Source: an uncultured Candidatus Rokubacteria bacterium (GTDB taxonomy: Bacteria; Methylomirabilota; Methylomirabilia; Rokubacteriales; DASRDR01). From it: a stretch of 64,000 nt of DNA. Position numbers and translations under genes: made by a program. Location of the stretch: positions 181,215 to 245,214 of the forward strand of contig CAVPSB010000049.1 in assembly GCA_963708025.1 (NCBI GenBank), read 5' to 3'. The notes beneath the pieces were generated by a model. It was not told the DNA's origin. It searched no databases and saw nothing but the letters and a program-made list of their open reading frames with translations. Shown here one piece after another: positions 9,915 through 47,554 of this stretch. Within the stretch, counting starts at the first letter, position 1. Each line of letters begins with the position of its first letter.

Positions 9915-9956
9915 GGCGCTGTGTCGACCTTCGGGATTGCGACGGGTCTGAAGGAG

Positions 9957-11082: not shown

Positions 11083-11119
11083 GCGGATGGCTCCCGGGCG
11101 CCCGATCCGGCCGGTCGGG

Positions 11120-20147: not shown

Positions 20148-21434
20148 TCATCCGCCGGCGCCGGTCCGTGCTCGCCGGATGGGTGCGCTCATGGAAAAGC
20201 GCAGCGCATGCGCCGCGTACCCGATCGGCCTCGAGAAGTACCGGAGTGCGCCCGCCGAGCTCGGACGCCCGAGCGCGGCGCCGCGGAGATACTCGCGCGA
20301 GGGGAACAGGAGCCACTGGAGCACGCGCGCCTGCGTTCGCCAGCCACCCGGCATCCTGCGGAGCAGGGCGAGAAGAGGCTGGCGCGACCCGTTGCGCGCG
20401 GCGAAGAGAGCCACGTCGCGCTCCACCGCCGGCGCGCGGTCGAATGCCTCGGCGAGCCGGTCAAGAAAGACGCCGGGGACCCGAGCGCCGAAGGTGTCGC
20501 TCAGATAGCGCAGCATCACGTAGAGCGGGAGCGTGAGTCGCGCGCGCCAGGCGATGTCGAGCACCTCGTGCCAGTCGAGGTCCGACTCCCGGTCGATGAT
20601 GAACCACGCATCGCACACCCAACGCAGGCTCGCCCGACTCGCGGAATACGAGGCATGCCCGCAGACGTGCACCAGGGCGTGCTCAGGCGAGAGTACGCGC
20701 GCCGCCACGCCGGCGATCGTGGTTGCCCGGCTGCGCTCCCATGCCTCGGTCGCGGGAAGGCTGTAGAACGGCAGCGCGAAGAGCTTGGCGTGCAGCTCGA
20801 GCGGAAGTCCCGAGGGATGATCGAGCCGGATGTCCGAGGGGCCGTAGTCTGGCGAGGCCGAGGCCGGCGTGAAACCGGCCGTGCCGAGCGCCCGCACAGC
20901 ACGCTCCAGGTCATCGGGCGCGACGAGGAGGTCGATGTCGTGGCAGTGCCGTTGGGCCGGATGGTCGTACACGATCTCGGCCAGTGCCGCGCCCTTGATC
21001 ACGAGCACGGACACTCCACTCGCGCCCAGCGCCTCGAGCGCGGCGCGGCAGATTGCGCGATAGGCGTCGTTGCGCATCGCCTCGCGGGCGTACGAGGTCG
21101 TGAGGTATGGACGCAGCGCCGGATCCACCTCCGCCGCATTGCGGCGAAGCGCGGTGAAGAGGAGCGGGAGGATCTGCTTCGCTCCCCCCGCGTCGTCCGC
21201 CACGGCGGCCTTCACATCCGCGTGGTAGCGCTGCCACTGGCGCCACGCGTCCCGCCCCGGCTCGGCAGACAGCAGGCAGGCGCGCAGCAGCCACGTCTGG
21301 TCGGCCCGCGGGAGGACGATGCCGAGCGCGCTCGCCAGCCGCGAGCGGGCGAGCGGCGCCCCAGGCACGCGGAACGCGCCCGGGTGGCCAAGGGGACTGC
21401 CCGACGAGTGCTCCAGGGCGCCGCCCACGCTCAT
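20148..21434 (-). CDS. Uncharacterised nucleotidyltransferase (NTP_transf_5 type)
   Basis: LVIKGAALAEIVYDHPAQRHCHDIDLLV, LELHAKL, LSPEHALVHVCGH, LRWVCDAW. Confidence 0.85.
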   Translation of the reverse strand: MSVGGALEHSSGSPLGHPGAFRVPGAPLARSRLASALGIVLPRADQTWLLRACLLSAEPGRDAWRQWQRYHADVKAAVADDAGGAKQILPLLFTALRRNAAEVDPALRPYLTTSYAREAMRNDAYRAICRAALEALGASGVSVLVIKGAALAEIVYDHPAQRHCHDIDLLVAPDDLERAVRALGTAGFTPASASPDYGPSDIRLDHPSGLPLELHAKLFALPFYSLPATEAWERSRATTIAGVAARVLSPEHALVHVCGHASYSASRASLRWVCDAWFIIDRESDLDWHEVLDIAWRARLTLPLYVMLRYLSDTFGARVPGVFLDRLAEAFDRAPAVERDVALFAARNGSRQPLLALLRRMPGGWRTQARVLQWLLFPSREYLRGAALGRPSSAGALRYFSRPIGYAAHALRFSMSAPIRRARTGAGG

Positions 21435-22174
21435 GTCTTCTTCTCGGCGGAGGAATCGGCAAGCGCCTCGGTACGGCGCCGGTCGAGCGACGACTTCAGG
21501 AATGCCAGCCACTCGTCGCGCGCCTGCGCGGTCTTCCGCCGGGTGAGGTTGGTGTGGTGCATGCGGCGGTACGTGAGCACATCGGACAGCACCTCGCTTA
21601 CCGCACCCAGGGCCGCGGCTCGCATGAACCAGTCGGCGGCGTCGGCAAACCAGAGCTGGGGGTCGAACCCTCCGACGCGGTCGAACACCGCGCGCCGCGC
21701 GAGGAGCGTGGTGGTGGCGTAGCCCGGCGGCTGCACGCGCTCGGAGTCCTTGTACTTCTCTTCCTCCTCCTTGAGCTCCGCGATCCAGAAGAGCTTCACG
21801 TACGAGAGACAGTAATCCAGCTCCGGGCGGGCGGCGAAGCGCGCCATCTGTCGCTCCAGCTTTTCCGGATGCCAGAGATCGTCGCCGTCCAAGAAGGCCA
21901 CCATCTCTCCGCGCGCCTCACGCAGCCCGGCGTTTCGCGCGGCCGGCGGCCCCATATTGGACTCCCAATAGTAGCGCACCTGCGTCCCATATTGCTCCAC
22001 CAGCGCCCTGGTACCGTCGGTCGACCCGTCGTCGATGACGACGATCTCGATCGGGCGATACGTCTGCGCGAGGATGCTGTCGATCGCTTCCTGGATGTAG
22101 CGCTCCCCGTTGTACGTGGGCACGATGCAGCTGATGAGAGGATTCATGGCGCCCTCCGAGCCTGTCGCGCTCAT
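21431..22174 (-). CDS. Glycosyltransferase family 2
   Basis: ISCIVPTYNGERYI, VIDDGSTDGT, ARNAGL, AFLDGDDLWHPEKL. Confidence 0.92.
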   Translation of the reverse strand: MSATGSEGAMNPLISCIVPTYNGERYIQEAIDSILAQTYRPIEIVVIDDGSTDGTRALVEQYGTQVRYYWESNMGPPAARNAGLREARGEMVAFLDGDDLWHPEKLERQMARFAARPELDYCLSYVKLFWIAELKEEEEKYKDSERVQPPGYATTTLLARRAVFDRVGGFDPQLWFADAADWFMRAAALGAVSEVLSDVLTYRRMHHTNLTRRKTAQARDEWLAFLKSSLDRRRTEALADSSAEKKT

Positions 22175-23310
22175 GCCAAGCTCCGTTGCGCGCGCCCGCG
22201 CTCGGCGAGCCCGCGGATCAGCTCGTCGTACGCGTCCACGTGCTGCTCCCAGCCAAAGGCAGCTAGGGCTCGCTGCCGAGCGGCCCTGCCCATCGCCGCG
22301 GCGCACCGCGGATCGTCCAGCAGCCTCGCGATGGCTCGTAAGAGGGCGCCGATGTCTTCGGGCTCGATGAGCAGTCCCGTCTCGCCGTCGACGACCACCT
22401 CGGGGAGCCCACCCACGCGTGCGGCGATGACCGGGCGCTCGAGTTGCCCCGCCTGCAGCACGGCGAGGCCGAACCCCTCCTCCACGCGTGAGGGCATCAG
22501 CACCATGGTGGACTGCGCAATCACCGCCGGGATCTGCGCGGGGTTCACCCACCCCAGGAAGTCCACGCGATCGGCGATGCCGAGGGCGTGCGCCTGACGC
22601 TCCAGCCTCGCGCGCTCCTCGCCGTCGCCGGCGATGGTGAGGCGAAGCAGCGGATAGCGCGGCGCGATCCGGGCCAGCGCCGACAGCGCGAGGTCGAAGC
22701 CCTTCTCCTTCGTGGCCAGGCGTCCGACGCAGAGTAGGCGTGGCGCCTCGAGCGGCGGAGGCGTGGGCGCGTGCGCCGTGGCCTCCAGTCCGTTGAGGAT
22801 CACGGAGCAGCGGTCAGCGATCTCGGGCGCCTGCCGGCGTATGCGCTCGAGCGTCGCGGCGGAGCACGCCGTCACCCATTCGGCATCGCGCAGCAGGCGC
22901 CGCAGCACGGAGTTGGGGGTGAGCACGTGGTCGGGGAAGGCGCCATGCAATGTGCACAGCGTGGCCGCCGGGTGCGCGTCGCGTGTCTCGAGATGCAGAA
23001 CGGTATCGAAGGTCGCATGGTAAACGTGTACGACCTCCGGCGCAAAGCCGCGCTTGAGCTGCGCCACCGTCCGCCGCAGCTCGAACCAGCGCAGCGCGTC
23101 GCGGCTCTCCGCCACCTGCAGGAAATCGAAGCGGCGCACCGGAACGCCCTCGAAGCTGGACTCGGCGGCGAGCTCCAGCTCGTCGCGTCGGGTGACCACC
23201 AGAATCTGGTGCCCCCGGTCGCGCAGCGCGGTGACCAGGCGGGCGCCGAGCACCTCGACCCCACCGATGTTCGGCCAGAACGCGTCACACCAGAAAAGAA
23301 TGCGGCTCAC
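22171..23310 (-). CDS. Glycosyltransferase family 4
   Basis: GTG start overlapping upstream stop; FWPNIGGVEV, LCVGRLATKEKGFD, PSRVEEGFGL, VGGLPEVVVDGETG. Confidence 0.92.
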   Translation of the reverse strand: MSRILFWCDAFWPNIGGVEVLGARLVTALRDRGHQILVVTRRDELELAAESSFEGVPVRRFDFLQVAESRDALRWFELRRTVAQLKRGFAPEVVHVYHATFDTVLHLETRDAHPAATLCTLHGAFPDHVLTPNSVLRRLLRDAEWVTACSAATLERIRRQAPEIADRCSVILNGLEATAHAPTPPPLEAPRLLCVGRLATKEKGFDLALSALARIAPRYPLLRLTIAGDGEERARLERQAHALGIADRVDFLGWVNPAQIPAVIAQSTMVLMPSRVEEGFGLAVLQAGQLERPVIAARVGGLPEVVVDGETGLLIEPEDIGALLRAIARLLDDPRCAAAMGRAARQRALAAFGWEQHVDAYDELIRGLAERGRAQRSLA

Positions 23311-23580
23311 GGCGCATCGACCGCGAGCGAGTCGAGGAGCTCGTTCACGCGGGCGGGGATGGTCTCGAGGTCGCTCCCCATCTCGAGCCGATGTGATGGC
23401 ACCCGCTCCACGAGGCACACGAGCGCGTCGAAGCCTCGTCGTGCCGGCATGAACGGGAGCATGAGCAGCGAGCTGGGCACCAGCGTGCGGAGCGCTTCGG
23501 CGCGCGATACGGGGCTCAGGTGTGCGCCCGCCGCGGCCGACGATCCTGGGAAGGACCAACGCTCGAACCGGCACCATGCT
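23307..23580 (-). pseudogene. C-terminal remnant of an HPr-kinase-like protein (paralog of 43431..44510)
   Basis: VPVRALVLPRI | SRAEALRTLVPSSLLMLP...LVERVPSHRLEMGSDL aligns by eye with VPIRVLVLPRL...SKGEALLALGPSSLLQIP...LVERVPVYSLELGRDL; the P-loop part is absent. Confidence 0.78.
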
Positions 23581-23676
23581 CTCATGGCGACCAAGCGTGT
23601 CCGCCGCTGCGCGCTGCGTGCGTATGCGATTCGTGCCCGTCCGCCGAGTGACGAGACTGCACGCCGCGCTTCGCCA

Positions 23677-24135
23677 CTAGAGGCCCGACCGCGGTGCCGG
23701 CGGTGCCGACTCCTGCCATGGGACCTCCTTGAGGCCCGGCATCGGCGGGTCGAGCGCGAGGAGGTCGGCCATGTCGCGGTAGCTGTTGAGGCGCGGCTCC
23801 TGGTACGGCTGCTTCGCGCCAGGCGACGCGCCGGTCGTGGGCGCCGCGGCGTCGCCGACGGCCGGCGTCACCAGCTTCTCGGCGATGAGCTCGTCGAGGA
23901 GTCGTTGCGCGTCCTCGAGCGCGCGCTGGCCAGTGACCTCGTACCGCGCGACGACGCCGTCCACAATCTCCTCGAAGGGCCGTCCCTCGGCGACCAGCGA
24001 CCAGATGAATCCACCCACCTTGTCCATGCTGTAGTACGTGCCGTTGGACAGATTGATGATGACGGCTTCGCCGTCGATCACCTTCGCGGCGCACTCCTCC
24101 TCGTTCGGTACCAGGCGGCTACGCGGTGACAGCAT
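23677..24135 (-). CDS. PqqD/RRE-family protein with fused leader-like C-terminal tail
   Basis: RBS AGGAG; KVIDGEAVIINLSNGTYYSMDKVGGFIWSL...YEV...EDAQRLLDELIAEKLV (PqqD fold), then PYQEPRLNSYRDMADLLALDPPMPGLKEVPW. Confidence 0.88.
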   Translation of the reverse strand: MLSPRSRLVPNEEECAAKVIDGEAVIINLSNGTYYSMDKVGGFIWSLVAEGRPFEEIVDGVVARYEVTGQRALEDAQRLLDELIAEKLVTPAVGDAAAPTTGASPGAKQPYQEPRLNSYRDMADLLALDPPMPGLKEVPWQESAPPAPRSGL

Positions 24136-25249
24136 GTGCATTCTCCTTGGCGACCTGCTGGTACAGAATGTCGAATTGGGAGACGTGACGCTCGATCGTG
24201 AATTCCTCCAGCGCGCGCTGGCGGCCCACGATGCCCATCCGCGCTGCCACGTCGGGATTCTCCAACAAGTACAGTATCGCGTCGGCGAGTGCACCGGGGT
24301 CTTCCTTCTCGACCAGCAGCCCGGTATCCCCGTGCACCACCACCTCCGGCACCCCACCAACGCGACTCGCGATCACGGGACGCGCCATCTGGGCGCCCTG
24401 CAGTGCCACGAGTCCGAATGCTTCCTTCCACCGGGAGGGCTGCAGCACCATCGTCGAGGCGTTGATGAGCTGCGGAACGTCTGCGGGGGCAACCCATCCC
24501 AGAAAGTCCACGGCATAGGCGATCCCGAGTTCCGCCGCCTGCCGCTCGAGCGCGGCTCGCGCCACTCCATCACCGGCCAGCACCAACCGCGCGCGGTGGA
24601 ACCTCGCGCGCACTTTCGCGAATGCGGTGAGCGCGGTGTCGAACCCCTTCTCTTCCACCAGACGCCCGATGGCCAGAATGCGCGGCGGATCCAGTGGGAG
24701 CGCGCTTGGGCGAAGAGCGGGCACGTCCAGCCCGTTGTGCACGACGGATGAGCGAGGCTGGATCTCGGGCACGAGCTGCCGCGCCTCGTCGAGCACCGCC
24801 ATGGAGGGGGCCGTGACCCATGCCGCATCGCGCAACGCGCGGCCGAAGAGCGAGTCGCCCATCGCGGCGGCGGCGGGCACGAAGACAGGAAGAGTGACGA
24901 GCAGCGGTGCCGGCCACGCGTCGGCGGTCTGATAGTGGAAGAGGAAGCTCGGGTCGGTGATGTTGAGGTGCACGAGATCGGGGCGGAGCTCTCGCTTGAG
25001 CGCGGCCAGTCCCCGCCGTGCCCGCACGATCTCCTCGAGGTCTCTAGTCGCGATCGCGGTCTGGAAGCGAAAGCGATGCACCGGTACTCCCTCGTGCTCC
25101 GCGAGATCCGGTAGATCGAGATGACCATGCGAGGTGACGACGCACGGCTCGTGGCCGCAGCGACGCAGCCCGCGGAGCAGCTGCGGCGACCGTACCTCGA
25201 CGCCGCCGATGTACGGGGCGTACAGTGCCGTCCAGTAGATCACGCGCAT
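24119..25249 (-). CDS. Glycosyltransferase family 4
   Basis: MRVIYWTALYAPYIGGVEV, IGRLVEEKGFD, PSRWKEAFGLVAL, VGGVPEVVVHGDTG. Confidence 0.92.
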   Translation of the reverse strand: MRVIYWTALYAPYIGGVEVRSPQLLRGLRRCGHEPCVVTSHGHLDLPDLAEHEGVPVHRFRFQTAIATRDLEEIVRARRGLAALKRELRPDLVHLNITDPSFLFHYQTADAWPAPLLVTLPVFVPAAAAMGDSLFGRALRDAAWVTAPSMAVLDEARQLVPEIQPRSSVVHNGLDVPALRPSALPLDPPRILAIGRLVEEKGFDTALTAFAKVRARFHRARLVLAGDGVARAALERQAAELGIAYAVDFLGWVAPADVPQLINASTMVLQPSRWKEAFGLVALQGAQMARPVIASRVGGVPEVVVHGDTGLLVEKEDPGALADAILYLLENPDVAARMGIVGRQRALEEFTIERHVSQFDILYQQVAKENAHAVTA

Positions 25250-25446: not shown

Positions 25447-26721
25447 TCAGGGCGACCAGAATCGCCACTCCGCCCGGCCCCGCCGCGTCGTGGACACAGC
25501 CAAGCCGGCCAGGTAGAGCCCGCACTGATAGGCGGCCAGCTTGGCGAACTCGATTGGCGCGGACAGGCGGGACCGACGCGAGACCGAGACACGCAACTCC
25601 TCCCAGAGCCAGCGCAGGGGGTCCTGGCTGCCCGTCACCAACTGGCGCAGATATCTGGCCCGTTCCCGTCCGCTCGGTTGGATCCACAGGGCGAGGAGGC
25701 GTCCAGCCGCGGCTTTCTGAAAGCGCTGGTCGAGGAGAGACGGCTCCGGTCTGAGGACCCCCAGGTGGAAGCAGGTCAAGAGATCTGGCCGGATGCGCCT
25801 GAGCACGTGATGCGGAACATCGGTCTCGAAAATCCTCCGAGTTAGCTGCAGCGACAGGGCCAGCCCGTTCAGGAGCCCGCCCCGACGCGCGCTGTCTTCG
25901 ACCAGGTCCCACCGAAACCGTGGGTTCGCCCTGATGATCCGGTCGATGTCCACGAATCTGACGAGGCGATCGAAGCCGCCCTGGGTGTTCTGGCTGACCA
26001 CGTGGAGCAACTGGTGCTCTGGACAGGGAAGGCGGAAGTCCGGTTTGCCGGAGTGGAACTCGGCCCAGGCGAGAAAGTCCTCGGTGACGAGCCGCATCGC
26101 GGAACCCGGGGCGGTCAGCCCGAAGTGCACCTCCACGATGAAGCCACGAGAGTGTCTCACGCGTACATGAAAATGGTGGTCCATGTAACCCTGGAGCTGT
26201 GCCTCGCTGTACCGATTCTCGTATCCGGAGTCGAGGAGGGCCGAGACACCCCTCTCCAGCTGGTCGGCAGGCAGGAGGAGGTCCAGGTCGCCGAACCCCC
26301 GCTCCACGGGCTCGCCATAGAGAGTCGTACACAGCGCTCCCCCCTTGAGCATGACGGGATCGAGCCCGCGGCGGTGGAGAACGCTGAGCACGCGATCGCG
26401 CTCGACCAGCCACAGGCCGGCGCGGCGGCGCAGGCGCGCGAGGGGGTGGGCCAGCTCGTCGCGCGTCTCGGAGGACAGCATCTCTTGAACGGCCGGACGC
26501 TCCAGCGCCACGAGGACCAGTCCCAGCACGCCATGACGCCGTGCGAAATCCAGGAAACGCTCGCGATCCCCTGACCGAGCGAGGCCGCGGAGGCCAGCTG
26601 CGTTGACACGGGGCTCCGGGACGTGCCGGCACAGCTCGATCACCAGGGACTGGATGGGATCGGCCAGGCCCCAGGGGGGCCGTCTCCAGCGGGCGGTGAA
26701 TCCTCTCCTCATGTGCCACAT
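25447..26721 (-). CDS. Uncharacterised nucleotidyltransferase (NTP_transf_5 type)
   Basis: VMLKGGALCTTLYGEPVERGFGDLDLLL, VEVHFGL, PEHQLLHV, FVDIDRII. Start uncertain. Confidence 0.85.
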   Translation of the reverse strand: MWHMRRGFTARWRRPPWGLADPIQSLVIELCRHVPEPRVNAAGLRGLARSGDRERFLDFARRHGVLGLVLVALERPAVQEMLSSETRDELAHPLARLRRRAGLWLVERDRVLSVLHRRGLDPVMLKGGALCTTLYGEPVERGFGDLDLLLPADQLERGVSALLDSGYENRYSEAQLQGYMDHHFHVRVRHSRGFIVEVHFGLTAPGSAMRLVTEDFLAWAEFHSGKPDFRLPCPEHQLLHVVSQNTQGGFDRLVRFVDIDRIIRANPRFRWDLVEDSARRGGLLNGLALSLQLTRRIFETDVPHHVLRRIRPDLLTCFHLGVLRPEPSLLDQRFQKAAAGRLLALWIQPSGRERARYLRQLVTGSQDPLRWLWEELRVSVSRRSRLSAPIEFAKLAAYQCGLYLAGLAVSTTRRGRAEWRFWSP

Positions 26722-27099
26722 CTGTGCCCATCACGAGGTGGACTGCGCTCCACAAGAGGCGGTCCCCCGATAGTGTGGGGATAATGCCCGAAGTGTAGCA
26801 GACTATGCCAGACTCGGGCCAGCGCGCTGAACTGGCGATCAGCGGAGTCACGCAGTCACCGCAGCGATCCCCGCTGTGAAGCGTTTTGCACATCCTGTGA
26901 CGAGGGGTAGTCAGCCGATTCGACCTCATCGGAGACGCCTCGGCGACCCGTTCGACCCCCGCCTGCGCGCGCGGTGACTCGCGGAGGCTCCGCTCACCGC
27001 AACGCTCTTCAGAGCCTCCACGGTTGGCGGCGGCCCGACCGGCAGTCGCCCTCGCGACTCAGCCTCCGCGCCGATTTCGTAATGATCGGCGACTTCATT

Positions 27100-27225
27100 G
27101 AATCGCTCTGTCGGCCGCAGGTGGCCCAATCCCCGCAAGAAGACGTCGCGAAGCGTCCCAGGCCGGTCCGGATGATAGCGGCGAAACTGCTTGCCAAGAC
27201 CCTGGAACCCGATGGCCATGGCCAT
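27100..27225 (-). pseudogene. N-terminal stub of a Wzt-like polysaccharide ABC exporter ATPase
   Basis: MAMAIGFQGLGKQFRRYHPDRPGTLRDVFLRGL directly after the Wzm-like stop; truncated before Walker A. Confidence 0.7.
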
Positions 27226-27226
27226 T

Positions 27227-27655
27227 CTAGAGCTCGTCCACGAAGTCGTGGCTCGCACGCGCGAAGGTCCGTGATCCCACGGCGAGGAGAGCTCCGGATA
27301 GCACCGCGAGTGCCAGAAGAGAAGCACCATCGGGGAACTCGCCGCGGACGAGGATCGCACGATAGGCGTCGAGCAGGTAGAGCATCGGGTTCAGATGGTA
27401 CACGGCTTCATGCCGCGCCGGCACGCGACTCGCCTCGTAGAAGACGGGCGTGAGGAACAGGAGAAGCTGGAGGAACCCGGCCAGGATGTATTGAGTGTCG
27501 CGAAACGTCACATAGAGAGTCGCGGCGAGGTAGGCCAGGCCCAACGTCAGGAAAAACTGGAGCGCGATCGGAACGGGCAGCATGAGCATCGCCGGCGTCA
27601 TGGATCGGTCGTCCAGAATGAAGACGAGCAACAGAATGGGAAGCGCCAGCAGGAG
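27227..27655 (-). pseudogene. C-terminal half of a Wzm-like ABC-2 polysaccharide export permease
   Basis: LLLALPILL...LGLAYLAATLYVTFRDTQY...FLTPVFY...LNPMLYLLDAYRAIL...FVDEL*; no N-terminus. Confidence 0.8.
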
Positions 27656-27669
27656 TTCCGGATCTGCGC

Positions 27670-28575
27670 GTAGGCTCGGGTGTCTGGGAGATCAGGTGAG
27701 GAGCGTAAACGAGCCGCGTGGGTCGGACGCCCTCCGGCGCCAGCGCCACAACGGCTTCCCGCCCGACCGAAGCGGCGTCGAGGACGTCAAACATGGCCGC
27801 GGAGGGCAGGAGCGCACGCCGGGACACGCTGGTGTCGATCGCGCCGGGAATCCGCCTGCCGACGATGACCGCCTGCTGACCGAGAAAGAGGGCCGAGTCG
27901 CGAGCGCCCGATCCGCTGAGCCGCGAATCACCTTCTTCCACCAGCTTGACGGGGGCCGAACATTGAGCCCCGGCAGCGGCGGCGGCGAGGCAGTCCCTAA
28001 CCGACCCACCGTCCGCGAAGGGTCGTCCGAGCAGTCCTTCCCGAACCGCGGCCCGGCAGAGCTCGAAGCCGCTGCCCCGGGTGAGCGCAGCCCGGAGCGG
28101 CTGGGCGCCGATGACTCCCTGCTCGGCGGGCAGACGGACAGCTCCGATCGCGACTCCGCCCACCATGGCCACGACGTTGAGCTCCGAGCCGGCGACGTGG
28201 ACGCAGGGAAGCTCTCCGGTGACCTCGATCGCCACCCAGTCAGTGTCGACCTTGCGCGTCGGCGCGGGCTCGTCGGTGGCGTTCGGGTCGTAGAAACGCT
28301 CCAGCGGCCAGTGTCAACGGTGCCACAGTTCCTGCAGGAATACCGTCCACCCCACCCGCGCGTGGATGTCCCGCCGTAACATGTCTTGGCTGTCCGGAGC
28401 CGAGGGTGTGAGCCGCGTCGATCCCCTCCAGAGTGATCGACCCTGCGCGTCCTCGTGGACCTCGAGCTCGGAATAGACGGTCCGCTGAAAGAAGCGCTCC
28501 AGGATCTGCCAGCCGAACTCCGCCGCAATCGAGTCGGCCAGAACATACCCGAGCACCGCACCGTCAACGACCGGG
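27670..28575 (-). pseudogene. Internal fragment of a large glycosyltransferase-associated protein, with premature TGA
   Basis: Continuous coding-like frame FGWQILERFFQRTVY...GWTVFLQELWHR*HWPLERFYD...GFELCRAAVREGLLGRP; no start or end. Confidence 0.5.
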
Positions 28576-28584
28576 AGCTCGCTT

Positions 28585-28695
28585 CGTACTCGGGGTAGGT
28601 CTGGCCCACGACGGAGGCGAGGGTCTCGCCGATGTACGGGGCCACGTTGTAGGCAGGGATGACGATGCTGACGACGGGACGGCGTGAGACCCCAG
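28585..28695 (-). pseudogene. N-terminal stub of a GT2 glycosyltransferase
   Basis: PVVSIVIPAYNVAPYIGETLASVVGQTYPEYEA, then homology stops abruptly. Confidence 0.75.
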
Positions 28696-29350
28696 TGAAC
28701 ACGAAGCCTACCCTCTTTGCGCTTTCCGAATACCCGGTGGACAAAGGTTCGCGCACAGGCGACCGGCGCGATCGGATTCCCTGGGCGACCGCGCGGGGAG
28801 GTCAGCGCGCGAGCGCCCGCATCTGGGTGAGGAGCAAGGAGCGTGCCCAGTGGCAACATCGCGCCGTTGCCCCAACACTGCGAGGGGGGCACTGTAAGAC
28901 ATCGATCGGCGGGCGTCAGCGCGCTGATGTGCAGAGCTCGTAACAATTAGGGGTAAACCCTCCATAGCAAGCGCAGCCGCCTGCGTTCAGCTCGACACGA
29001 TCACGCGACGTCGGTCGGAGGTTCAACGACGTCTCGCGCCCCGGAGATGCGGGGGTCGGCGCAGTTGTCACACACCACGGCGAGGTCGAGCTTAGATGGA
29101 TTGATACGGCTTGATACGGCGGCTGGCGCATGGGGCCCGAGTGGGCTATGCTGGCGGCGCCTGGGCGAGGGATCCCTCGCAGCGAATGGGGCGTTCGAGC
29201 GGCCTGCGATCCTGCATTGTTGACTCGTTCTCTAGGCGAGCAGACACCTTCCGTCCGTCTCGACGACGATCCGTGGCCGGGCGGGCTCGGGAGTGCGCTG
29301 GGCCCATGAGCCGCGGCCGGCGCCGGTAACCACTCGCCGAGGGAGCGCCG

Positions 29351-40156: not shown

Positions 40157-40975
40157 ATGACCAGTCCGCAACACAGAGTGCTCACGTCGCCTCCGACCGC
40201 GGACCTGCGCGCGGTGATAAGCTGCATCGTCCCCGTGTTCAATGGTGAACGCTATCTAGACGAGACGCTGGACAGCATCCTCCAGCAGACTCACAGCCCA
40301 CTGGACATCATCGTCGCCGACGACGGCTCAACTGACGGAACAGCGGCTGTCGTTGCCGCCTACGGCGAGCGGGTCACGTATCTGTGGCAACCGAATGCTG
40401 GTGAGACAGCCGCGCGCAACCTCGGGCTTCGCGCCGCGCGTGGCGATTTCGTCGCCTTCCTGGATGCGGACGACCTCTGGCATCCAGACAAGCTCGCGCG
40501 GCAAGTCGCCCGATTCCAGGATCGCCCGGGGCTCGATCTCTGCTTTACTCACTTCGAGAACTTCTGGAGTCCAGAATGTACGGCCGAAGCAGAATACTAC
40601 CGGAAGCGCGCATTTTCCCCAGCGTCATCCGCGTACTCGATCTGTACCTTGCTGGCCCGCCGCGCCGCTTTTCAGAAGTTCGGCCATTTCGTCGACGACG
40701 GTCGTCGGGGGCCCCAGAACCTCATCTGGCTCTTTCACGCTGCTGAACACGGCGCCCGCATCGAGATGTTGACCGACCTCCTGATGTATCGCCGCCTTCA
40801 CCGCGAGAACCTCTCCGGGAAGCGGAGCACTGCTCACGACCTCGACACCTTCTTCCCGATCCTGAAGGCGTGGCGCGACTACCAACGGCGAGTGCGCGAA
40901 GAGACGGGGGTCGCCGCCCCGTTTGGGGCGGGCTTACCAATGACCGAAACCAGGCCGGGAGGTGTCGCATGCTGA
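40157..40975 (+). CDS. Glycosyltransferase family 2
   Basis: ISCIVPVFNGERYL, VADDGSTDGT, ARNLGL, FLDADDLWHPDKL. Confidence 0.92.
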   Translation: MTSPQHRVLTSPPTADLRAVISCIVPVFNGERYLDETLDSILQQTHSPLDIIVADDGSTDGTAAVVAAYGERVTYLWQPNAGETAARNLGLRAARGDFVAFLDADDLWHPDKLARQVARFQDRPGLDLCFTHFENFWSPECTAEAEYYRKRAFSPASSAYSICTLLARRAAFQKFGHFVDDGRRGPQNLIWLFHAAEHGARIEMLTDLLMYRRLHRENLSGKRSTAHDLDTFFPILKAWRDYQRRVREETGVAAPFGAGLPMTETRPGGVAC

Positions 40976-41418
40976 CGCTGGATCAGCGCTTTCACCCGTG
41001 TGCGCAGGTTGCCTCCAGGGTCTTCGACGGCGAGGCGATCCTGATCAACATGTCCACCGGGATGTACTACAGCATGGTCGATGTCGGTGGGCGCGTCTGG
41101 GAGCTATTGGAGGCGCGACGGAGCCTCGACGAAGTCGTGTTGTCGATCACCGCACGTTACGACGTTTCACGCGAGCAGGCCGAGGCCGACGTCCAGCGGC
41201 TGGCGGCCGACTTGCTCCGCGAGGATCTGATCGCGGCGACCCACGATGGGCCGCCGGCTCGCGCGATCGCGGACACACCGCCGCAAGCGACACTTCCGTA
41301 CGAAGCGCCCCGGCTCGACGTGTATCGCGACATGGGAGACTTGCTCGCGCTGGATCCCCCCGCCCCCCAGCTCATGGGCATCGCGTGGAACGAGCCGGGC
41401 GACGAGCCACCTCGTTAG
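40969..41418 (+). CDS. PqqD/RRE-family protein with fused leader-like C-terminal tail
   Basis: RBS GGAGG; RVFDGEAILINMSTGMYYSMVDVGGRVWELL...YDVSREQAEADVQRL, then PYEAPRLDVYRDMGDLLALDPPAPQLMGIAW. Confidence 0.88.
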   Translation: MLTLDQRFHPCAQVASRVFDGEAILINMSTGMYYSMVDVGGRVWELLEARRSLDEVVLSITARYDVSREQAEADVQRLAADLLREDLIAATHDGPPARAIADTPPQATLPYEAPRLDVYRDMGDLLALDPPAPQLMGIAWNEPGDEPPR

Positions 41419-41451
41419 CCCAACGGCCAGGTGACGAGAGAATAGTCTGTC

Positions 41452-42192
41452 GTGCTGCCTCTGATCAGCTGCGTCGTTCCCGTCTTCAACGGCGAGCGGT
41501 TTCTGCGCGAGGCGTTGGACAGCATCCTGGCGCAGACCTATCGGCCGGTGGAGATCATTGTCGCCGACGACGGCTCCACGGATGGGACGGCCGGTGTGGT
41601 GGCGGCCCATGCCGGCGAGATTCGTTACGTGTGGCAACGCAATGCGGGACCAGCGGCGGCTCGCAACCTGGGGTTGAGCGTCGCGCAAGGCGAGTTTGTC
41701 GCGTTTCTCGACGCCGACGACCTCTGGCATCGGGAGAAACTCGCGCGGCAGATGGCCTCCTTTCAGGCGCGATCCGAGCTCGATCTCTGCGTCACCCACA
41801 TACAGAACTTTTGGGTCCCAGAGCTGCGCCGGGAGGCGATTCGGTTGCAGCATGATCGGCTGATGCAAGCGTTGCCCGGGTACCTGACATCGACGCTTCT
41901 CGCCCGTCGAGCCGTATTCGAATCGGCCGGCGGATTCGATGTCGCCTTGCCGCATGCGGGAGACACCGAGTGGTTCTTGCGCGCGGCTGAACGCGGCGCC
42001 GTCATGGAGTTGTTACCCGATCTGTTGACCTATCGCCGATTGCACCAGACCAATCGGAGCCGCCTGTCGGCGACTGCGAGCTGGGAAGAGTACCTGCTGA
42101 TCGTGAAAGCGTCGCTGGACCGGCGGCGTCGCCTCAACAGGGCCGCCGCGCCGTACGCATTCCCGGGCGTCAACGAGCCGAGGAACACCTAG
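41452..42192 (+). CDS. Glycosyltransferase family 2
   Basis: ISCVVPVFNGERFL, VADDGSTDGT, FLDADDLWHREKL; paralog of 40157 and 21431. Confidence 0.92.
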   Translation: MLPLISCVVPVFNGERFLREALDSILAQTYRPVEIIVADDGSTDGTAGVVAAHAGEIRYVWQRNAGPAAARNLGLSVAQGEFVAFLDADDLWHREKLARQMASFQARSELDLCVTHIQNFWVPELRREAIRLQHDRLMQALPGYLTSTLLARRAVFESAGGFDVALPHAGDTEWFLRAAERGAVMELLPDLLTYRRLHQTNRSRLSATASWEEYLLIVKASLDRRRRLNRAAAPYAFPGVNEPRNT

Positions 42193-42261
42193 GCGAGCCA
42201 CCATTGACCTATGGGCCCGTCGCCACCCGTGCTCGAGGCGGGGGAGGCAATCGGCTGAACG

Positions 42262-43428
42262 ATGCGAGTGTTGTACTGGTCCGATCTTTTTTCGCCGTAC
42301 GTTGGGGGCGCTGAAGTGCTGAGCGCCGATCTCATCGAAGCGTTGGGGCAGCGCGGCATCGAAGCGCTCGTGCTTACCCGGCAGGACCCCGCCGATCTAC
42401 CCAGCGAGGCACGATTCAAGGGAATATCGGTGTGTCGTATCCCGTTCCTCACGGCGTTCGCGGACGGCAACATCGACCGACTCCTCGCGGCACGCCACGA
42501 GGTCAGCAGGCTCAAGCGGAGCTTTGCGCCCGACCTCATCCACGTCATCTCTTTCGGCGCCAGCGCCCTGTTTCACCTCGACACCGCGACCGCGTACCCG
42601 GCACCACTGTTGGTCACGTTGCACGGCGAGAGATCCCTAGAGGTTACGAGCGGCGACACCCTCCTGCAGAAGACCCTGCGCTCGGCCGATTGGGTGACCG
42701 GCGTCTCGGCCGCTGTCCTTGCCCAAGCACGTGAGCTGGTGCCGGAGATCCTTCCGCGCTCGTCCGTCATCTGCAACGCTCGCAAAGCACCCCGTCTCTT
42801 CCCGGAACCCTTGCCAACCGAGCCACCGACACTCCTGTGTCTCGGTGAACTCGTATCCAGCAAGGGCTTTGATCTGGCTTTGTCGGCCTTCGCTTCGGTC
42901 GTGGGGCGCATTCCGCGCGTGCGCCTGATCGTCGCGGGGGATGGTCCGGCGCGTCCGGCGCTGGAACGCCAGACCGCCAGCCTTGGCCTCACGAGTCTTG
43001 TCGACTTTCGCGGTTCCGTGACGCCAGCCGAGGTCCCCTACCTGATCAACAGCGCGACGGCGGTCGTGATCCCGTCTCGGCGCGAAGGGTTTTCCCTCGT
43101 CGCGTTGGAAGCAGCGTTGATGGGCCGCCCGGTGGTGGCAACCCGGGTTGGAGGCCTGCCGGAAGTCGTCGAAGATCAGAAGACCGGTTTCCTAGTCGAC
43201 CCGGACGACGCGGAGGCACTTGCCGACGCGCTCGCGTTTCTCCTGACTCACCTCGAGACCGCCGCCGAGCTAGGCCGGACAGCACGCCGCCGGGCGATCG
43301 AGGAGTTCAGCTGGGAACAGTGCGTCGCTGCCTATGCATCCCTCTACCGAGCGCTGACACGCGGCACGAACAGACATACCGTCGGTCCGATGGTCGCCTC
43401 CACCCAGCTTCCCGCAACCGAGGCGTAG
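42262..43428 (+). CDS. Glycosyltransferase family 4
   Basis: MRVLYWSDLFSPYVGGAEV, KGFDLAL, PSRREGFSLVALEA, VGGLPEVV. Confidence 0.92.
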   Translation: MRVLYWSDLFSPYVGGAEVLSADLIEALGQRGIEALVLTRQDPADLPSEARFKGISVCRIPFLTAFADGNIDRLLAARHEVSRLKRSFAPDLIHVISFGASALFHLDTATAYPAPLLVTLHGERSLEVTSGDTLLQKTLRSADWVTGVSAAVLAQARELVPEILPRSSVICNARKAPRLFPEPLPTEPPTLLCLGELVSSKGFDLALSAFASVVGRIPRVRLIVAGDGPARPALERQTASLGLTSLVDFRGSVTPAEVPYLINSATAVVIPSRREGFSLVALEAALMGRPVVATRVGGLPEVVEDQKTGFLVDPDDAEALADALAFLLTHLETAAELGRTARRRAIEEFSWEQCVAAYASLYRALTRGTNRHTVGPMVASTQLPATEA

Positions 43429-43430
43429 CG

Positions 43431-44510
43431 ATGCGGATCTCGCTGCCGGAGTCCGTTGCATCCCGGGGATGGCTGATGATGCGCGACACTTTCGACGGCG
43501 CGCTGGAGACCAACCCCGATAGCCTCAGCGAGTTCTTCTACATCTTCGGCGGTCACCATGTGCGCCTGCGCGTCGTCGGACGCCGCCTCGCCGCGCAGAT
43601 CACGCGGCCGTTCTCGCACTTACAGACGAATCGTCCCACCGGTCACCGGCTCTCCATTGACCTCTGGGACGAGGCCGAGACGGGTCTGCGATGCCCAGTG
43701 AGCTCACCGCCAGGCGACTCGGAGTGGACATCTGGGCCAGCAATCTCGTCTGAGGGTCGATTCATCTGGCAAAAGTCGCCGAACACGGTCAGCTGCCTGG
43801 ATCGGCGGTCATCGCGCATCGTGGGGCAGATGCGATGGAGTGACCAGGTGCTGACCTACGAACTGGGAAAACCGCTGGCCAGGCCTTTGCTGGAATGGCA
43901 CAACGATCGCGGCGTCCAAGTGATCCACGCCGGCCTCGTCGCCCGTGACAGCCATGGGATTCTCTTTGCGGGGAAGAGCGGTGACGGGAAGTCAACATGC
44001 GCGTTGGCGTGTGTCTGTGCTGGATTCGACTATTTGGGTGAAGACTTCGTCGGCTTGGAGCGTCGGCAGCCAGACGGGTCGTTTCTGGGCTACAGTCTCT
44101 ACAATGCGGCATTCGTGACGAACGATCACCTGGCGCGCTTCCCTCAGCTGGTCCCTCACGCCACGCTCGGCATCCCGGCCCGGGACGACAAGTCGGTCGT
44201 CATCCTGTCGCAGGTGTTTCCCGAGCGGCTCAGACGCGTCGTCCCGATTCGGGTACTGGTGCTCCCGCGTCTAGGCGATGCTTCGGAATCGCGGGTTCGA
44301 CGTGCTTCGAAGGGGGAGGCCTTGCTCGCACTCGGACCCAGCTCGCTCCTGCAGATACCGAGCCGCGGGATGGGCAGTTTCGCCAACCTGGCGGCGCTGG
44401 TCGAGCGCGTTCCTGTCTATTCGCTGGAGCTCGGACGTGATCTGCGATCGATTGCCCCTCGCGTCGGAGAAATCCTGACCGAGGCGACGGCTTTCGGGGA
44501 GGAGACCTAA
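43431..44510 (+). CDS. HPr-kinase-like P-loop kinase
   Basis: VIHAGLV, ILFAGKSGDGKSTCALAC, FDYLGEDFV (HprK-type H-A-G / Walker A / acidic pair). Confidence 0.8.
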   Translation: MRISLPESVASRGWLMMRDTFDGALETNPDSLSEFFYIFGGHHVRLRVVGRRLAAQITRPFSHLQTNRPTGHRLSIDLWDEAETGLRCPVSSPPGDSEWTSGPAISSEGRFIWQKSPNTVSCLDRRSSRIVGQMRWSDQVLTYELGKPLARPLLEWHNDRGVQVIHAGLVARDSHGILFAGKSGDGKSTCALACVCAGFDYLGEDFVGLERRQPDGSFLGYSLYNAAFVTNDHLARFPQLVPHATLGIPARDDKSVVILSQVFPERLRRVVPIRVLVLPRLGDASESRVRRASKGEALLALGPSSLLQIPSRGMGSFANLAALVERVPVYSLELGRDLRSIAPRVGEILTEATAFGEET

Positions 44511-45403
44511 TGGCCTCCACACGTAGGGGAAGGATTCCCCTGTTCGAGCGCCTGCAGATCGAGTCGCAGTCGAACTGTAACCGGTCCTGCTGGTTTTGCC
44601 CCCGCACCTATGACCGGTCCGGAAAGTACCTCAACGCGGATGCGAAGTCCGTCTTCAATCGGATGCCCACCGAGACAATTCTGGACCTCCTCGACCAAGC
44701 GCAGGCGCTCGGGTTCCAGGAGCGCGTCGGCTTTCACCACTACTCTGAGCCCTTGCTCGACAAGCGAAACATCATGCTCGCCGAAGCGGCGCGCGGACGA
44801 GGCATGAAGCCCTATCTGCACACCAATGGTGACGCCTTGAAGCACGACGACGAGCTCTGCGAGCAGGTCAAGGACGTTTACGGGCTGGTCGTGGTGGGCC
44901 TCTACGACTACAGGACGAACGAGGAACTGGAGGGCCTCAAGCGGTACTGGCGACACCGCTTGGCCGGTGCCAACCTCAAGTTCAGCGCGATCGGGATTCT
45001 TGGCGCCCAGTCGGCCCAGAGCATCGGGGTCCCCAAGGCGCTGGTGCCGTCCGACGCCCGGATGGCGATTCCCGACCTCACCTACGCCAATGGGGCATGC
45101 CATCGGCCGCTGATCCGGATGATAATCCAGCACGATGGCGAGATGTGTAACTGCTGCGAGGATACCTCCGGGGCCTTCGAGCTCGGCAATGTCAATCAAA
45201 GCTCGCTGGAAGCGCTGTGGTTCTCCGAGCGGCATGTCCGCGTCGTCGAGGATCTCATTGCAGGTCGGCGAGCATCTTACGCGCTCTGCCGCAACTGCCC
45301 GCTGTCTCCAACCGGGCCGCCACTCGACGGCAGGAAGATCGACATCGCTCCCCGACGCTATCGCGGGGCGCCTCTGTCCGCGAAAGCGGCACACGCGACA
45401 TAA
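44510..45403 (+). CDS. Radical SAM protein with SPASM/twitch auxiliary cluster domain
   Basis: CNRSCWFC; HTNG; C-terminal CHRP...DGEMCNCCED...LGNVNQSSLEALW...CRNC. Confidence 0.9.
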   Translation: MASTRRGRIPLFERLQIESQSNCNRSCWFCPRTYDRSGKYLNADAKSVFNRMPTETILDLLDQAQALGFQERVGFHHYSEPLLDKRNIMLAEAARGRGMKPYLHTNGDALKHDDELCEQVKDVYGLVVVGLYDYRTNEELEGLKRYWRHRLAGANLKFSAIGILGAQSAQSIGVPKALVPSDARMAIPDLTYANGACHRPLIRMIIQHDGEMCNCCEDTSGAFELGNVNQSSLEALWFSERHVRVVEDLIAGRRASYALCRNCPLSPTGPPLDGRKIDIAPRRYRGAPLSAKAAHAT

Positions 45404-45578: not shown

Positions 45579-46550
45579 TCAGGCGAGAGGACCCCCTGGG
45601 AGATCCGTGGGATTCCCCGGGGGAACCTCGGCTGGCATGATGGCGGCGCGGCCTGCTGCCAGCCTCACGGCGCGCTCGTGAAGCTGCGGCGTGCCGAGTC
45701 GCTCTGACCAGGTCCCGAAGTCCGCGCGCGGTCCCGTCCAGCGAAGCGCGTCCACGTCGGCGCCGATGGGCGCATCGGCACGCAGCGTGGCCAGCTCCCG
45801 GAACAGCAGCGCGCGGTCGCGTTGCTCCGCGAGCGTCGTGGCCAGCCGCTGTGCTCCGCGCACGGACACGTCCCACCCGGTGGCCAGCTCCGGAATGTGC
45901 TCCAGGTGGTGATACCGGGCGAGCACGGTCGCCGCGGACCGGGTACCCCAGCCGGGCAGCCCGGGGTAGCCGTCCGCGCTATCCCCCACCAGGGCCAGCC
46001 AATCGGGAATCGAGGCCGGCCGGACGCCGAACTTCTGCCGCACCGCCGACTCGTTGCGCAGCTCGCGCGTGCGCCGATCCAGCTGGACGATCCGGTCGCC
46101 CCGCACGCACTGCGCCAGATCCTTGTCCGGCGAGCACACGACGACCTGGTCGACCCGCGCATCGGCCGCGGCCATCGCCGCCGCCGCGGCCAGCGCATCG
46201 TCGGCCTCGAACTCGACCATGGGCCAGACGACCACGCCGAGTGCGCTCAGCGCCTTCTCCAGCGGCTGGAACTGGGCGTAGAGCAGCGGGTCGATGCCCT
46301 CCCCGGTCTTGTAGCCCGGCCAGAGCGCGTTGCGAAACGATTCGATGACGTGATCCGTGGCCACCCCCAGATGGGTGGCGCCGCCCTCGAGCATGCCGAG
46401 CACCGACCCGACGACGCCGCGCACGGCCCTCAGCTCCTCGGGAGCGCTCCGGTCGAAGGCGGCCGCCGGCGAGAGGAAGTAGCGGAACAGCTCGAACGTC
46501 CCGTCGATCAGCTGGACGATCACGATCGGAACGATACGGCCGGGCGCCAC
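45579..46550 (-). CDS. Stand-alone 5'-3' exonuclease / flap endonuclease
   Basis: LIDGTFELFRYF, SFRNALWPGYKTG, FEADDALA, SPDKDLAQ, LALVGDSADGYPGLPGWG. Confidence 0.92.
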   Translation of the reverse strand: MAPGRIVPIVIVQLIDGTFELFRYFLSPAAAFDRSAPEELRAVRGVVGSVLGMLEGGATHLGVATDHVIESFRNALWPGYKTGEGIDPLLYAQFQPLEKALSALGVVVWPMVEFEADDALAAAAAMAAADARVDQVVVCSPDKDLAQCVRGDRIVQLDRRTRELRNESAVRQKFGVRPASIPDWLALVGDSADGYPGLPGWGTRSAATVLARYHHLEHIPELATGWDVSVRGAQRLATTLAEQRDRALLFRELATLRADAPIGADVDALRWTGPRADFGTWSERLGTPQLHERAVRLAAGRAAIMPAEVPPGNPTDLPGGPLA

Positions 46551-46693: not shown

Positions 46694-47554
46694 TTGGAGC
46701 CCTCGTTCCCGATCGTCAGACAGCCCGCGCCGGGAAGGCGCATGCCGGTACTGGTCAGCGTGCCCCACTACGGCACGCAGCCGTTGCCCCAGGTCACCCG
46801 CGACGACTACACCGAGCCGTGGTTCGAGACCTTCGCCTACGGGTTCGCCGACACCTTCGTGGGCGATCTCTACGCCGACCTTCACGAGCAGGGGGCCACC
46901 GTGCTCGCCACCCCCTTCTCGCGCATCTTCGTCGACGTCAACCGCCGCCGCGACGACTTCGAGCACCGGGACGGCGAGGTGCGTTCGCGGCGCGGCGTGG
47001 TGCGCACCCACACGATGCGGGACGCGCCCATCTTCACGCGCCCGCTCGGGCTGGCCGACCTCGAGGCGCGATTGCAGACCCTCTACGATCCCTACTACAC
47101 GGCCCTGGAGCGCCTGCTCGCCGAGCTCCGTCAGGCCCACGGCTACGCGCTGCTCCTCGATGGCCACACCGGGAGCCCGCGCCGGATGAAAGATCACCAG
47201 GTGATCATCGGCACGCGCCACGACGCGACGTGCGCGCCTCAGCTCGTGACGACCGTGGCCGCGAGCTTCACCCGCCACGGCTTCGAGGTGCACGAGAACG
47301 TCAGTGGCTACACCGGTGGCAACATCGTGGCCACGTTCGGTCAGCCCCGGACGCGCGGGGTCCACGCGCTCCAGCTGGAGATCAACGCGTCGCTGCTGAT
47401 GACGACCAGCCGGGAGGAGTTCATCGCCCAGGTGTCGCGAGGTGGAGTCCCCGAGAAGGCGGACGGGAACATCGCCCGGGTGCGCGAGTGCCTCCGCGAG
47501 CTTCTGGCCGCCCTGCCCTCGGTCCTCGCGACCCTGCACGCGCCGTCGCGGTGA
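46694..47554 (+). CDS. N-formylglutamate amidohydrolase family protein
   Basis: VLVSVPHYG, SRIFVDVNR, LLDGHT, YTGGNI, HALQLEIN. Confidence 0.82.
   Translation: MEPSFPIVRQPAPGRRMPVLVSVPHYGTQPLPQVTRDDYTEPWFETFAYGFADTFVGDLYADLHEQGATVLATPFSRIFVDVNRRRDDFEHRDGEVRSRRGVVRTHTMRDAPIFTRPLGLADLEARLQTLYDPYYTALERLLAELRQAHGYALLLDGHTGSPRRMKDHQVIIGTRHDATCAPQLVTTVAASFTRHGFEVHENVSGYTGGNIVATFGQPRTRGVHALQLEINASLLMTTSREEFIAQVSRGGVPEKADGNIARVRECLRELLAALPSVLATLHAPSR

Follow-up and report, generated by a model that had tools for sequence, protein, structure and literature searches.

An RRE protein carrying its own leader-like tail in a kinase and glycosyltransferase operon of a Rokubacteria bacterium

As listed in Table 1, six genes lie on the + strand at 40157..45403 of the window, that is, the whole stretch of 64,000 nucleotides that was analysed from a contig of an uncultured Rokubacteria bacterium. 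They encode, in this order, a family 2 glycosyltransferase (GT2), a PqqD-like protein, another GT2, a family 4 glycosyltransferase (GT4), an HprK-like kinase, and a radical S-adenosylmethionine (SAM) enzyme with a SPASM/twitch domain. The intergenic gaps are -7, 33, 69, 2, and -1 bases. The coupled operon that an earlier note had read at this place was confirmed, with all of its open reading frames (ORFs) on the + strand. It was found that the PqqD-like protein combines two parts in one polypeptide: a recognition element (RRE), as used for peptides made on ribosomes and modified after translation (RiPPs), and a conserved leader-like tail. I call it the RRE-tail protein. The catalytic motifs of its neighbours are intact: DADD in both GT2s, EX7E in the GT4, CxxxCxxC in the radical SAM enzyme, and the His, P-loop, and Asp motifs in the kinase. 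Close relatives of all six genes were found on contigs of another run. A promoter and terminator scan of the operon gave a result at chance level.

PF05402 covers residues 22-88 of the window protein (P0001) with an E value of 7e-16 and 58.8 bits against a cut-off of 23.4, and the remaining 60 residues had no match in the Pfam scan. The domain has the PqqD/RRE fold (three strands, three helices, and a peptide cleft), and Foldseek matched it to TbiB1 with an E value of 1e-6. D74 is retained and aligns to D70 of LppB, the binder of the leader Tyr in the linear polyphosphorylated peptide (LPP) system discussed below. The equivalent of LppB N33 is Asp in the RRE-tail family and Val in the window copy. 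A linker of 18-30 residues (22 in 132/216) follows the domain, and the family consensus after the linker is YxxPxLxxYxDMxDLLALDPP. The tail segment quoted in the earlier note corresponds to residues 110-140 of the 149-residue protein.

Is the tail a real feature? YxxPxL occurs by chance in 17% of 20,000 shuffles of residues 89-149, and a single motif is weak by itself. It was taken as real because of its conservation. A homologue search returned 421 proteins among 549 candidates, and nearly all of the 120 listed are 140-157 residues long. In an alignment of the window protein with the best 120 of these 421 homologues, Y111, Y119, D121, M122, L125, L126, A127, D129, P130, and P131 are present in 100% of the 121 sequences, while the linker (92-110) varies freely. 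Conservation of the tail had been proposed as a test in the earlier note, and these ten invariant positions answer it. When 1.84 billion representatives were searched with a profile, 181 matched at E 1e-30; at 1e-10 there were 3,572 matches, among them ordinary tail-less RREs. The tail pattern is matched by 129 of the 150 best profile matches. Alignment A2 holds 139 rows, 16 from the homologue search and 123 of the 150 best profile matches. Its leader-like columns are Y in 136/139, P in 135/139, and L in 128/139, counts that are partly selected for by filtering the rows by length and a tail-like pattern.

A second tail subtype (DPxH) ends with DMxxLLLLDP[IV]H[DE]VxExGWP. Among 20 divergent loci, 18 have the DPxH subtype, one has the DPP type, and one has a Ser variant. 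Matches in the ESM Atlas were to PqqD clusters only. According to record titles, the hosts belong to Methylomirabilota/Rokubacteria, Binatia, other deltaproteobacteria, Actinomycetota, Bacteroidota, Gemmatimonadota, Acidobacteriota, Nitrospirota, Chloroflexota, Pseudomonadota, and Vulcanimicrobiota. The cultured cyanobacterium Crinalium epipsammum PCC 9333 has a DPxH-type gene on a plasmid, directly followed by nucleotidyltransferase (NTase), kinase, methyltransferase, and glycosyltransferase genes.

The earlier note had seen the RRE and the leader-like segment joined in one protein, and the joining turned out to be family-wide. When metagenomes were searched with the tail alone, an in-frame RRE was found at 71/80 loci (the best 80 of 228 confirmed), seven others being cut by a contig edge and two apparently frameshifted or deleted. 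No intact stand-alone tail was found. A search for shorter proteins gave only three (61-75 residues), which all start in the RRE end or the linker; they were rejected as free tail peptides and read as truncated gene calls. A GT4-RRE protein, the one match among 8,000 scored in a search for longer fusions, was discounted because it resembles a frameshift join. Relatives with two or three tandem RREs have a YxxPxL-type segment after each domain and the DMxDLLxLDP part once. Since the motif is repeated with each RRE, the duplicating unit is the RRE, linker, and motif together. The tandem-RRE proteins are P0122, P0126, P0127, P0131, P0147, P0159, P0224, P0257, and P0267, with a further case at locus L140; P0257 ends fused to a kinase.

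In the AlphaFold (AF2) model made from A2, residues 111-120 have a predicted local distance difference test score (pLDDT) of 97, residues 117-119 form a strand, and residues 109 and 64 are bridge residues. In the LppB-leader complex, as described in PMC13381572, K-18 bonds E61, and the sheet is extended by residues -12 to -7. The modelled strand and bridge thus match the LppB-LppA binding mode. From the model and the duplication pattern, it is very likely that YxxPxL folds back into the cleft of its own RRE on a tether of about 22 residues, a docking that the earlier note had proposed to check by modelling. This docking in cis was read from pLDDT and secondary structure, and the single-chain model also allows a swapped dimer.

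The kinase matches PF07475 (E 3e-4) and TIGR04352 (E 6e-12), both under the models' own cut-offs. H166, K187, and D205 are present in 30/30 kinases, and at position 204 there are 24 with D and six, including the window copy, with E. The kinase family carries the His-Lys-Asp-Asp motif of the LPP clusters. In a PDB sequence search with the kinase profile, the best matches were HprK enzymes over about 55 residues, and there was no RRE-kinase complex among the matches. The predicted complex of the kinase with the RRE-tail protein scored 0.84, and the best of three controls scored 0.01. The runs share at least 44% of contacts, with a partner pLDDT of at least 76. The mark used for the score is passed by 116/157 solved pairs and 2/215 mismatched pairs, rates that are only rough for alignments of this kind. 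In the predicted interface, kinase helices 293-325 and P-loop residue 182 face the outer sheet of the RRE (15-35) together with residues 119, 121-123, and 125-126 of the tail, so that helix 122-126 of the mini-core contacts the kinase. RRE-side interface columns are conserved at 0.81 versus 0.50 overall. The model makes it quite probable that the RRE sheet binds to the kinase's C-terminal helices and guides helix 122-126 toward the P-loop. A quick tree was built from 63 kinases, and in it those encoded beside DPxH tails (16) cluster regardless of host (SH-aLRT 92, unstarred; the group includes the long-branched kinase of locus L135). As judged from this tree, the grouping shows joint descent of the cassette, not co-evolution.

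Which genes accompany the RRE-tail gene elsewhere? Within 8 kb at 41 genome loci, GT2 was found at 39, GT4 at 32, the kinase at 32, the nucleotidyltransferase-fold family PF14907 at 32, AsnB at 7, ATP-binding cassette (ABC)-type genes at 6, and the radical SAM gene of the window type at 4; the neighbour profiles were built from the same loci as were counted. At the 27 loci with at least 5 kb on both flanks, the counts are 27 for GT2, 25 for NTase, 24 for GT4, and 23 for the kinase. The neighbourhood survey called for in the earlier note was thus consistent with its expectation, and GT2, GT4, the kinase, and the PF14907 NTase form the core. Its suggestion of a surface-glycan role found no such backing, as no exporter occurs consistently (ABC-type genes at the six loci above). 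Among 18 of 19 divergent loci scored (L135 was left out and L140 fell under the score limit), GT2 was found at 18, the kinase at 16, NTase at 11, and GT4 at 5. The GT2 upstream of the window RRE-tail gene belongs to a subfamily of short GT2s (subfamily alignment, n=71) that are encoded next to nearly all RRE-tail genes. Among solved structures, chondroitin synthase is the nearest relative of this GT2 (E 2e-49). Five genomes were chosen for having no kinase nearby: two have one 13-26 kb off, one has a partial copy elsewhere, and one has a distant type only. Of 61 related genomes, 10 have a tail-bearing RRE, and the kinase occurs in these same 10, but they are kin and hence not independent.

The radical SAM enzyme, counted as part of the system in the earlier note, holds up as a gene of the operon but not as a component of the system. 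Its closest solved structure is BtrN (4m7t, E 1.1e-17). Pfam detected no PqqD domain in it, and it does not match the peptide-modifying radical SAM/SPASM maturases in this respect. Because it is closest to BtrN, lacks an RRE match, and recurs within 8 kb at only 4/41 loci, it was regarded as accessory. BtrN oxidises an aminocyclitol, and by analogy the window enzyme probably tailors a sugar or cyclitol.

The earlier note had seen no separate precursor and no B2 peptidase in the window, and across 42 genomes and 47 loci both were likewise absent from the vicinity. B2 peptidase (PF13471) matches occur in 21/42 genomes, but no tail-bearing RRE has one within 10 kb; the nearest are about 12 kb away, in G089 and G092. 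SpI peptidase (TIGR02228) matches occur in 14/42 genomes; DPP-type RREs have none within 10 kb, and one adjoins only the Ser-tail locus L135. No recurring precursor with a leader motif was found among 7,838 small ORFs of the 47 loci. The Pfam scan found no macrolactam cyclase in the operon; a genome-wide search was not made. Of the AsnB homologues near 7/41 loci, one that was scanned has a glutaminase domain, and locus L009 has a weak PF00733 match without it.

Table 1. Genes and parts of the operon and of the sister cluster in the window
Feature	Position	Strand	Remarks
GT2, 272 residues	40157..40975	+	PF00535 E 9.9e-35; DADD at 103
RRE-tail protein P0001, 149 residues	40969..41418	+	RRE domain, linker, leader-like motif, Asp-Pro mini-core
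RRE (PqqD-fold) domain, residues 1-91	40969..41241	+	Foldseek TbiB1-leader complex 5v1v, template modelling score TM(target) 0.91
Variable linker, residues 92-110	41242..41298	+	mean column identity 0.21
Leader-like, putative RRE-binding segment Y111-x-x-P114-x-L116-x-x-Y119-R120	41299..41328	+	pLDDT 97; conservation
Mini-core D121-MGDLLAL-D129-P-P...W140	41329..41415	+	helix 122-126; D129 = 41353-41355
GT2, 246 residues	41452..42192	+	PF00535 E 1.7e-32; DADD at 87
GT4, 388 residues	42262..43428	+	PF00534 E 5.6e-38; EX7E at 275
HprK-like P-loop kinase, 359 residues	43431..44510	+	H166, GxxGxGKST 181-189, E204-D205
BtrN-like radical SAM/twitch enzyme, 297 residues	44510..45403	+	PF04055, PF13186; CxxxCxxC at 23
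Second PF14907 enzyme, Pol-beta NTase fold	20151..21512	-	E 3.8e-46; model pLDDT 93
Sister-cluster span	21467..25249	-	GT2 21467-22150; GT4 22189-23307; GT4 24131-25249
Kinase remnant, C-terminal part, no P-loop	23322..23534	-	sister cluster
Paralogous RRE-tail gene, 43% identical	23677..24135	-	sister cluster
PF14907 nucleotidyltransferase-fold enzyme	25450..26721	-	E 5.5e-43

A sister cassette lies at 20151-28756 of the window on the - strand. It comprises NTase, GT4, RRE-tail, kinase remnant, GT4, GT2, and NTase genes and is preceded by a GT2 and ABC-2 membrane fragments. The kinase remnant retains the helices that are predicted to bind the RRE. The fold neighbours of the NTase are MenT1 (Z 16.3; root-mean-square deviation 2.8, 176 residues aligned), ANT(2'')-Ia (Z 13.1), LnuA, and, at a greater distance, FKRP (Z 8.4), and no PDB sequence match to the PF14907 enzyme was found below E 0.02. 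The modelled fold alone would be compatible with nucleotidyl or glycosyl-phosphate transfer and does not settle the reaction.

A third complete cassette is present in the same genome, on contig C31. Another locus (L003, G000:C18, 9226-12144) has a kinase of the RRE-tail family type and two GT2 genes and no RRE in the 20 kb of the locus; this kinase may use an RRE-tail protein from another locus. At about 7700-20700 of G000:C25 (partly L004), there are a tail-less RRE, a distant kinase, a PF14907 enzyme, a B2-like match, a GMC oxidoreductase, and an AMMECR1 domain. About 12 kb from the tail-less RRE lies an ORF that resembles a precursor: it has YxxPxI, an AFA site, and numerous GGTGQ repeats. 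This is a candidate for a separate RiPP system.

The closest described system is the LPP clusters of Bacillota (lppA-K-B-S-D-N; PMC13381572). The earlier note had compared the operon with lasso peptide clusters. It was right that this is not a standard lasso pathway, and the nearer comparison is LPP instead. As far as that paper describes them, LPP clusters share with RRE-tail cassettes an RRE with the Tyr-binding Asp, a YxxPx[VL] leader, an HprK-like kinase, an uncharacterised NTP transferase, and a location among glycosyltransferases; they also have no cyclase, and none was seen in the window operon. The NTP transferase is found family-wide as PF14907 and in the window only via the sister cluster. 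In contrast to the discrete RRE and separate precursor of LPP, the RRE-tail system has a single chain. Unlike LPP clusters, RRE-tail cassettes have Asp-Pro at +18 from the leader Tyr and no SpI peptidase or consistent MsbA-like exporter. Their core is short and conserved, whereas the LPP core is variable. They nearly always have a dedicated GT2 next to the RRE-tail gene, and the sampled hosts are outside Bacillota. On sequence grounds, the RRE-tail cassette is LPP-like in its recognition and its kinase/NTase set, and departs from LPP in the discrete RRE, the peptidase, and the Ser acceptor.

Other systems are more distant. The paeninodin and pseudomycoidin clusters (PadeK, PsmK, PsmN; PMC6993621, PMC9266682) share the His-Lys-Asp-Asp kinase motif, an NTP-transferase partner, and a discrete-type RRE fold, and these papers describe PsmN as needed for the hexose on the phosphate. 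In contrast to the clusters so described, the RRE-tail cassette has no B2 peptidase or C-terminal Ser, no macrolactam cyclase was seen in the window operon, and the acceptor would not be a released peptide. No separate YxxPxL precursor recurs at the loci surveyed, and Leu stands where lasso precursors have Thr at -2. The NCBIfam cassettes HPr-rel-A, HPr-rel-B, and SynChlorMet (TIGR04352, TIGR04353, TIGR04355, TIGR04248, TIGR04249) likewise pair a PqqD-family protein with an HprK-related kinase. However, the window proteins score far under the cut-offs (kinase 45 of 200 bits, RRE 29 of 100, TIGR04353 no match), and the RRE models of those cassettes have 74-88 positions without the tail. In borosin-type fusions, the substrate peptide is joined to the protein that recognises it, and the fused domain is the catalyst. 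In contrast, the RRE fused here is non-catalytic and recruits separate enzymes. RRE-GT fusions and unannotated long PF05402 proteins are reported in PMC7470986 and PMC12710340; no self-liganded RRE is mentioned with them there, although the supplements may list such proteins. A literature search that included the tail motifs (zero matches) gave no description of an RRE-tail protein; it mostly left out subscription papers, and the LPP and RRE-Finder supplements may list such proteins. Thus, the cassette is apparently an undescribed and widespread variant of the RRE-kinase-NTase module, whose architecture and partner are well supported.

What could the end of the tail do? In LPP, according to PMC13381572, the leader has its Tyr at -16, and Ser3, which is phosphorylated, follows 18 steps later, with the consensus YxxPxVLxHQxIxFETxxS. 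In the RRE-tail family, Asp-Pro lies at +18/+19 from the Tyr in 245/253 motif occurrences, and the same register is found in both subtypes and in Crinalium. The acceptor Ser of LPP and the invariant Asp share the same spacing. In A2, the Ser3 register is Asp in 135/139 and Ser in 0/139. Several DPxH members keep Asp-Pro while their YxxP has decayed. Two other residues were considered as acceptors and rejected: Tyr119, which is Phe in 21/139, and Thr132, which is present in 19/139. At L135 (G081:C5, 667-3680), the RRE tail ends in Ser at +17, and the genes after it encode an SpI-like peptidase, a divergent kinase, and GT4s. This variant, from a single genome, resembles an intermediate between LPP and the RRE-tail family and is possibly a fused LPP-type precursor. 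It was not found with the L135 query in 300 other genomes of its phylum.

These observations suggest a fused RRE, leader, and core. In the favoured reading, given even odds, its Asp-Pro end would be the covalent acceptor for a phospho-glycosylation, whose chemistry is inferred. YxxPxL would dock in its own RRE, the RRE sheet would dock on the kinase, and helix 122-126 would be led toward the P-loop. Asp129-Pro130 would then be brought to the place of the LPP phospho-Ser3; the register comes from the sequence, and the position in the active site is conjectural. Two routes can be imagined. The kinase may make an aspartyl phosphate, which the PF14907 enzyme would cap with a hexose, like PsmN on phospho-Ser. 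Alternatively, the GT2 may first add a sugar to the tail, and the kinase would phosphorylate a hydroxyl of that sugar. The GT2 and GT4 with accessory sugar enzymes (BtrN-like radical SAM enzyme, epimerases, amidotransferase) could build a variable glycan. Because no leader peptidase accompanies the genes, no peptide would be released, and the pathway would yield a phospho-glycosylated protein or a primer that can be reused. A fuller scheme is offered only tentatively: a widespread protein-primed glycan pathway, in which the HprK-family kinase acts at the Asp of the RRE's own tail (making an acyl phosphate, or acting on a sugar carried there), PF14907 and GT2/GT4 enzymes build a phosphoglycan, and the protein is a self-loading carrier.

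Several points weigh against Asp129 as an acceptor and against the cassette as a fixed set. Ser/Thr is conserved nowhere in the tail, and 27/243 tails have no Ser/Thr after +10. The monomer model has a pLDDT of 55-68 for residues 121-149. D129 is outside the confident contacts of the complex, and the kinase-side interface columns (0.53 versus 0.49) are hardly more conserved than the rest. The kinase retains D205, which I take to be the HprK base for a hydroxyl acceptor and dispensable for a carboxylate. As far as the available reports go, the characterised kinases of the HprK-like group all phosphorylate Ser, and LppK rejected S3T and S3Y (PMC13381572). The +18 coincidence could be inherited geometry without chemistry. 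Of 10 metagenome loci flanked by 2 kb or more, only 3 had the kinase, and it was not found in G079, the fifth of the genomes chosen for lacking it nearby. The window operon has a whole kinase and no PF14907 NTase; the sister cluster, 14-20 kb off, has two NTases and a kinase remnant, and the two may complement each other. Finally, the neighbourhoods resemble polysaccharide genes, with Wzx, Wzm/Wzt, sulfotransferase, pyruvyl transferase, deacetylase, and epimerases among the other neighbours.

The main rival reading is that the tail serves as a pseudo-substrate and stays unmodified. With its own ligand in place, the RRE would then be a permanent adaptor or activator of the kinase, perhaps of the GT2 or NTase too, with Asp129 mimicking phospho-Ser. 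The substrate of the enzymes would be a sugar, sugar nucleotide, or cell glycan, handled via a kinase-NTase-transferase route. This reading as a whole is a serious possibility, though short of an even chance. The tail without a conserved hydroxyl and the retained D205 fit such a role. So do the polysaccharide-type neighbours, the BtrN-like radical SAM enzyme, and the GT2, the most constant neighbour (27/27), with its relation to chondroitin synthase. PMC13381572 also reports LppB to be insoluble when its leader is missing, and stabilising the fold could therefore be all that a fused leader does. On the other hand, the residues beyond the docking strand, D129-P130-x-H/P and the terminal W, are better conserved than the rest of the tail, and in the DPxH subtype they persist where YxxP has decayed. 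The single Asp-Pro part of the tandem RREs is as expected of one reactive site, and the Ser variant of L135 with its peptidase resembles a true fused precursor.

The invariant Asp-Pro also recalls the clip-and-link chemistry of RTX proteins (PMC7078468, as there described). Self-cleavage at this bond could give a reactive C-terminal Asp anhydride that replaces the peptidase, none being encoded nearby, and links the RRE to a glycan or amine. This is unlikely, as the protein has no self-processing module, only the dipeptide is in common, and the LPP Ser3 register accounts for the Asp without cleavage. About as unlikely is an ordinary RiPP cluster whose precursor is encoded elsewhere, with the tail as an autoinhibitory plug displaced by the true leader: the Gly-rich ORF with YxxPxI on contig C25 would be such a precursor, but it lies near a tail-less RRE with its own kinase, NTase, and the genome's only B2-like match, no leader-motif ORF recurs among the small ORFs surveyed, and the tethered motif is expected to outcompete a free one.

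RREs have been taken as adaptors for separate precursors. According to PMC12710340, 21% of PF05402 proteins exceed the length of a discrete RRE and have no other annotation. The RRE-tail family explains a part of this set, in which the 'missing precursor' may be the RRE's own tail. As reported in PMC13381572, PMC6993621, and PMC9266682, deletion of lppN caused no change in a heterologous host, and the reaction of PsmN is not yet settled. The RRE-tail protein offers a defined single-chain candidate substrate for PF14907 enzymes and for a large GT2 subfamily. Should the Asp be an acceptor, HprK-type kinases would have a chemistry new to them; should it be a phosphomimic, a RiPP module would have been turned into a glycan-tailoring complex. 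Since Crinalium epipsammum PCC 9333 is cultured, its plasmid makes the question directly testable.

Some further features of these loci may be recorded. The window operon is followed by a stand-alone 5'-3' exonuclease gene (45579-46550, -) and an N-formylglutamate amidohydrolase gene (46694-47554, +), which are unrelated and of housekeeping type. The operon has a G+C content of 0.64-0.66 versus 0.69-0.76 for most of the flanking DNA, which is consistent with insertion. A DUF6817/HD-domain protein, possibly a phosphohydrolase partner, is encoded in or beside five cassettes (L006, L010, L023, L025, L036). A small cluster of ORFs without a Pfam match in the listed frame lies beside Wzx flippase genes at L016 14833-16200, L018 7531-8790, and L031 14960-16678; they may be shadows of an NTase on the opposite strand. 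L007 (2721-11194) has three RRE-tail copies with identical tails and scores, each followed by a GT2 within a few hundred to 1,300 bases, resulting from either recent duplication or an assembly artefact. The Crinalium locus (L147, 5896-15473) is a compact cassette on the mobilizable plasmid pCRI9333.04, with the RRE-tail protein WP_232229449.1, the NTase WP_015180010.1, and the kinase WP_015180011.1. It also encodes an FkbM methyltransferase, two GT-A enzymes, a tetratricopeptide repeat (TPR) protein, and two NTases.

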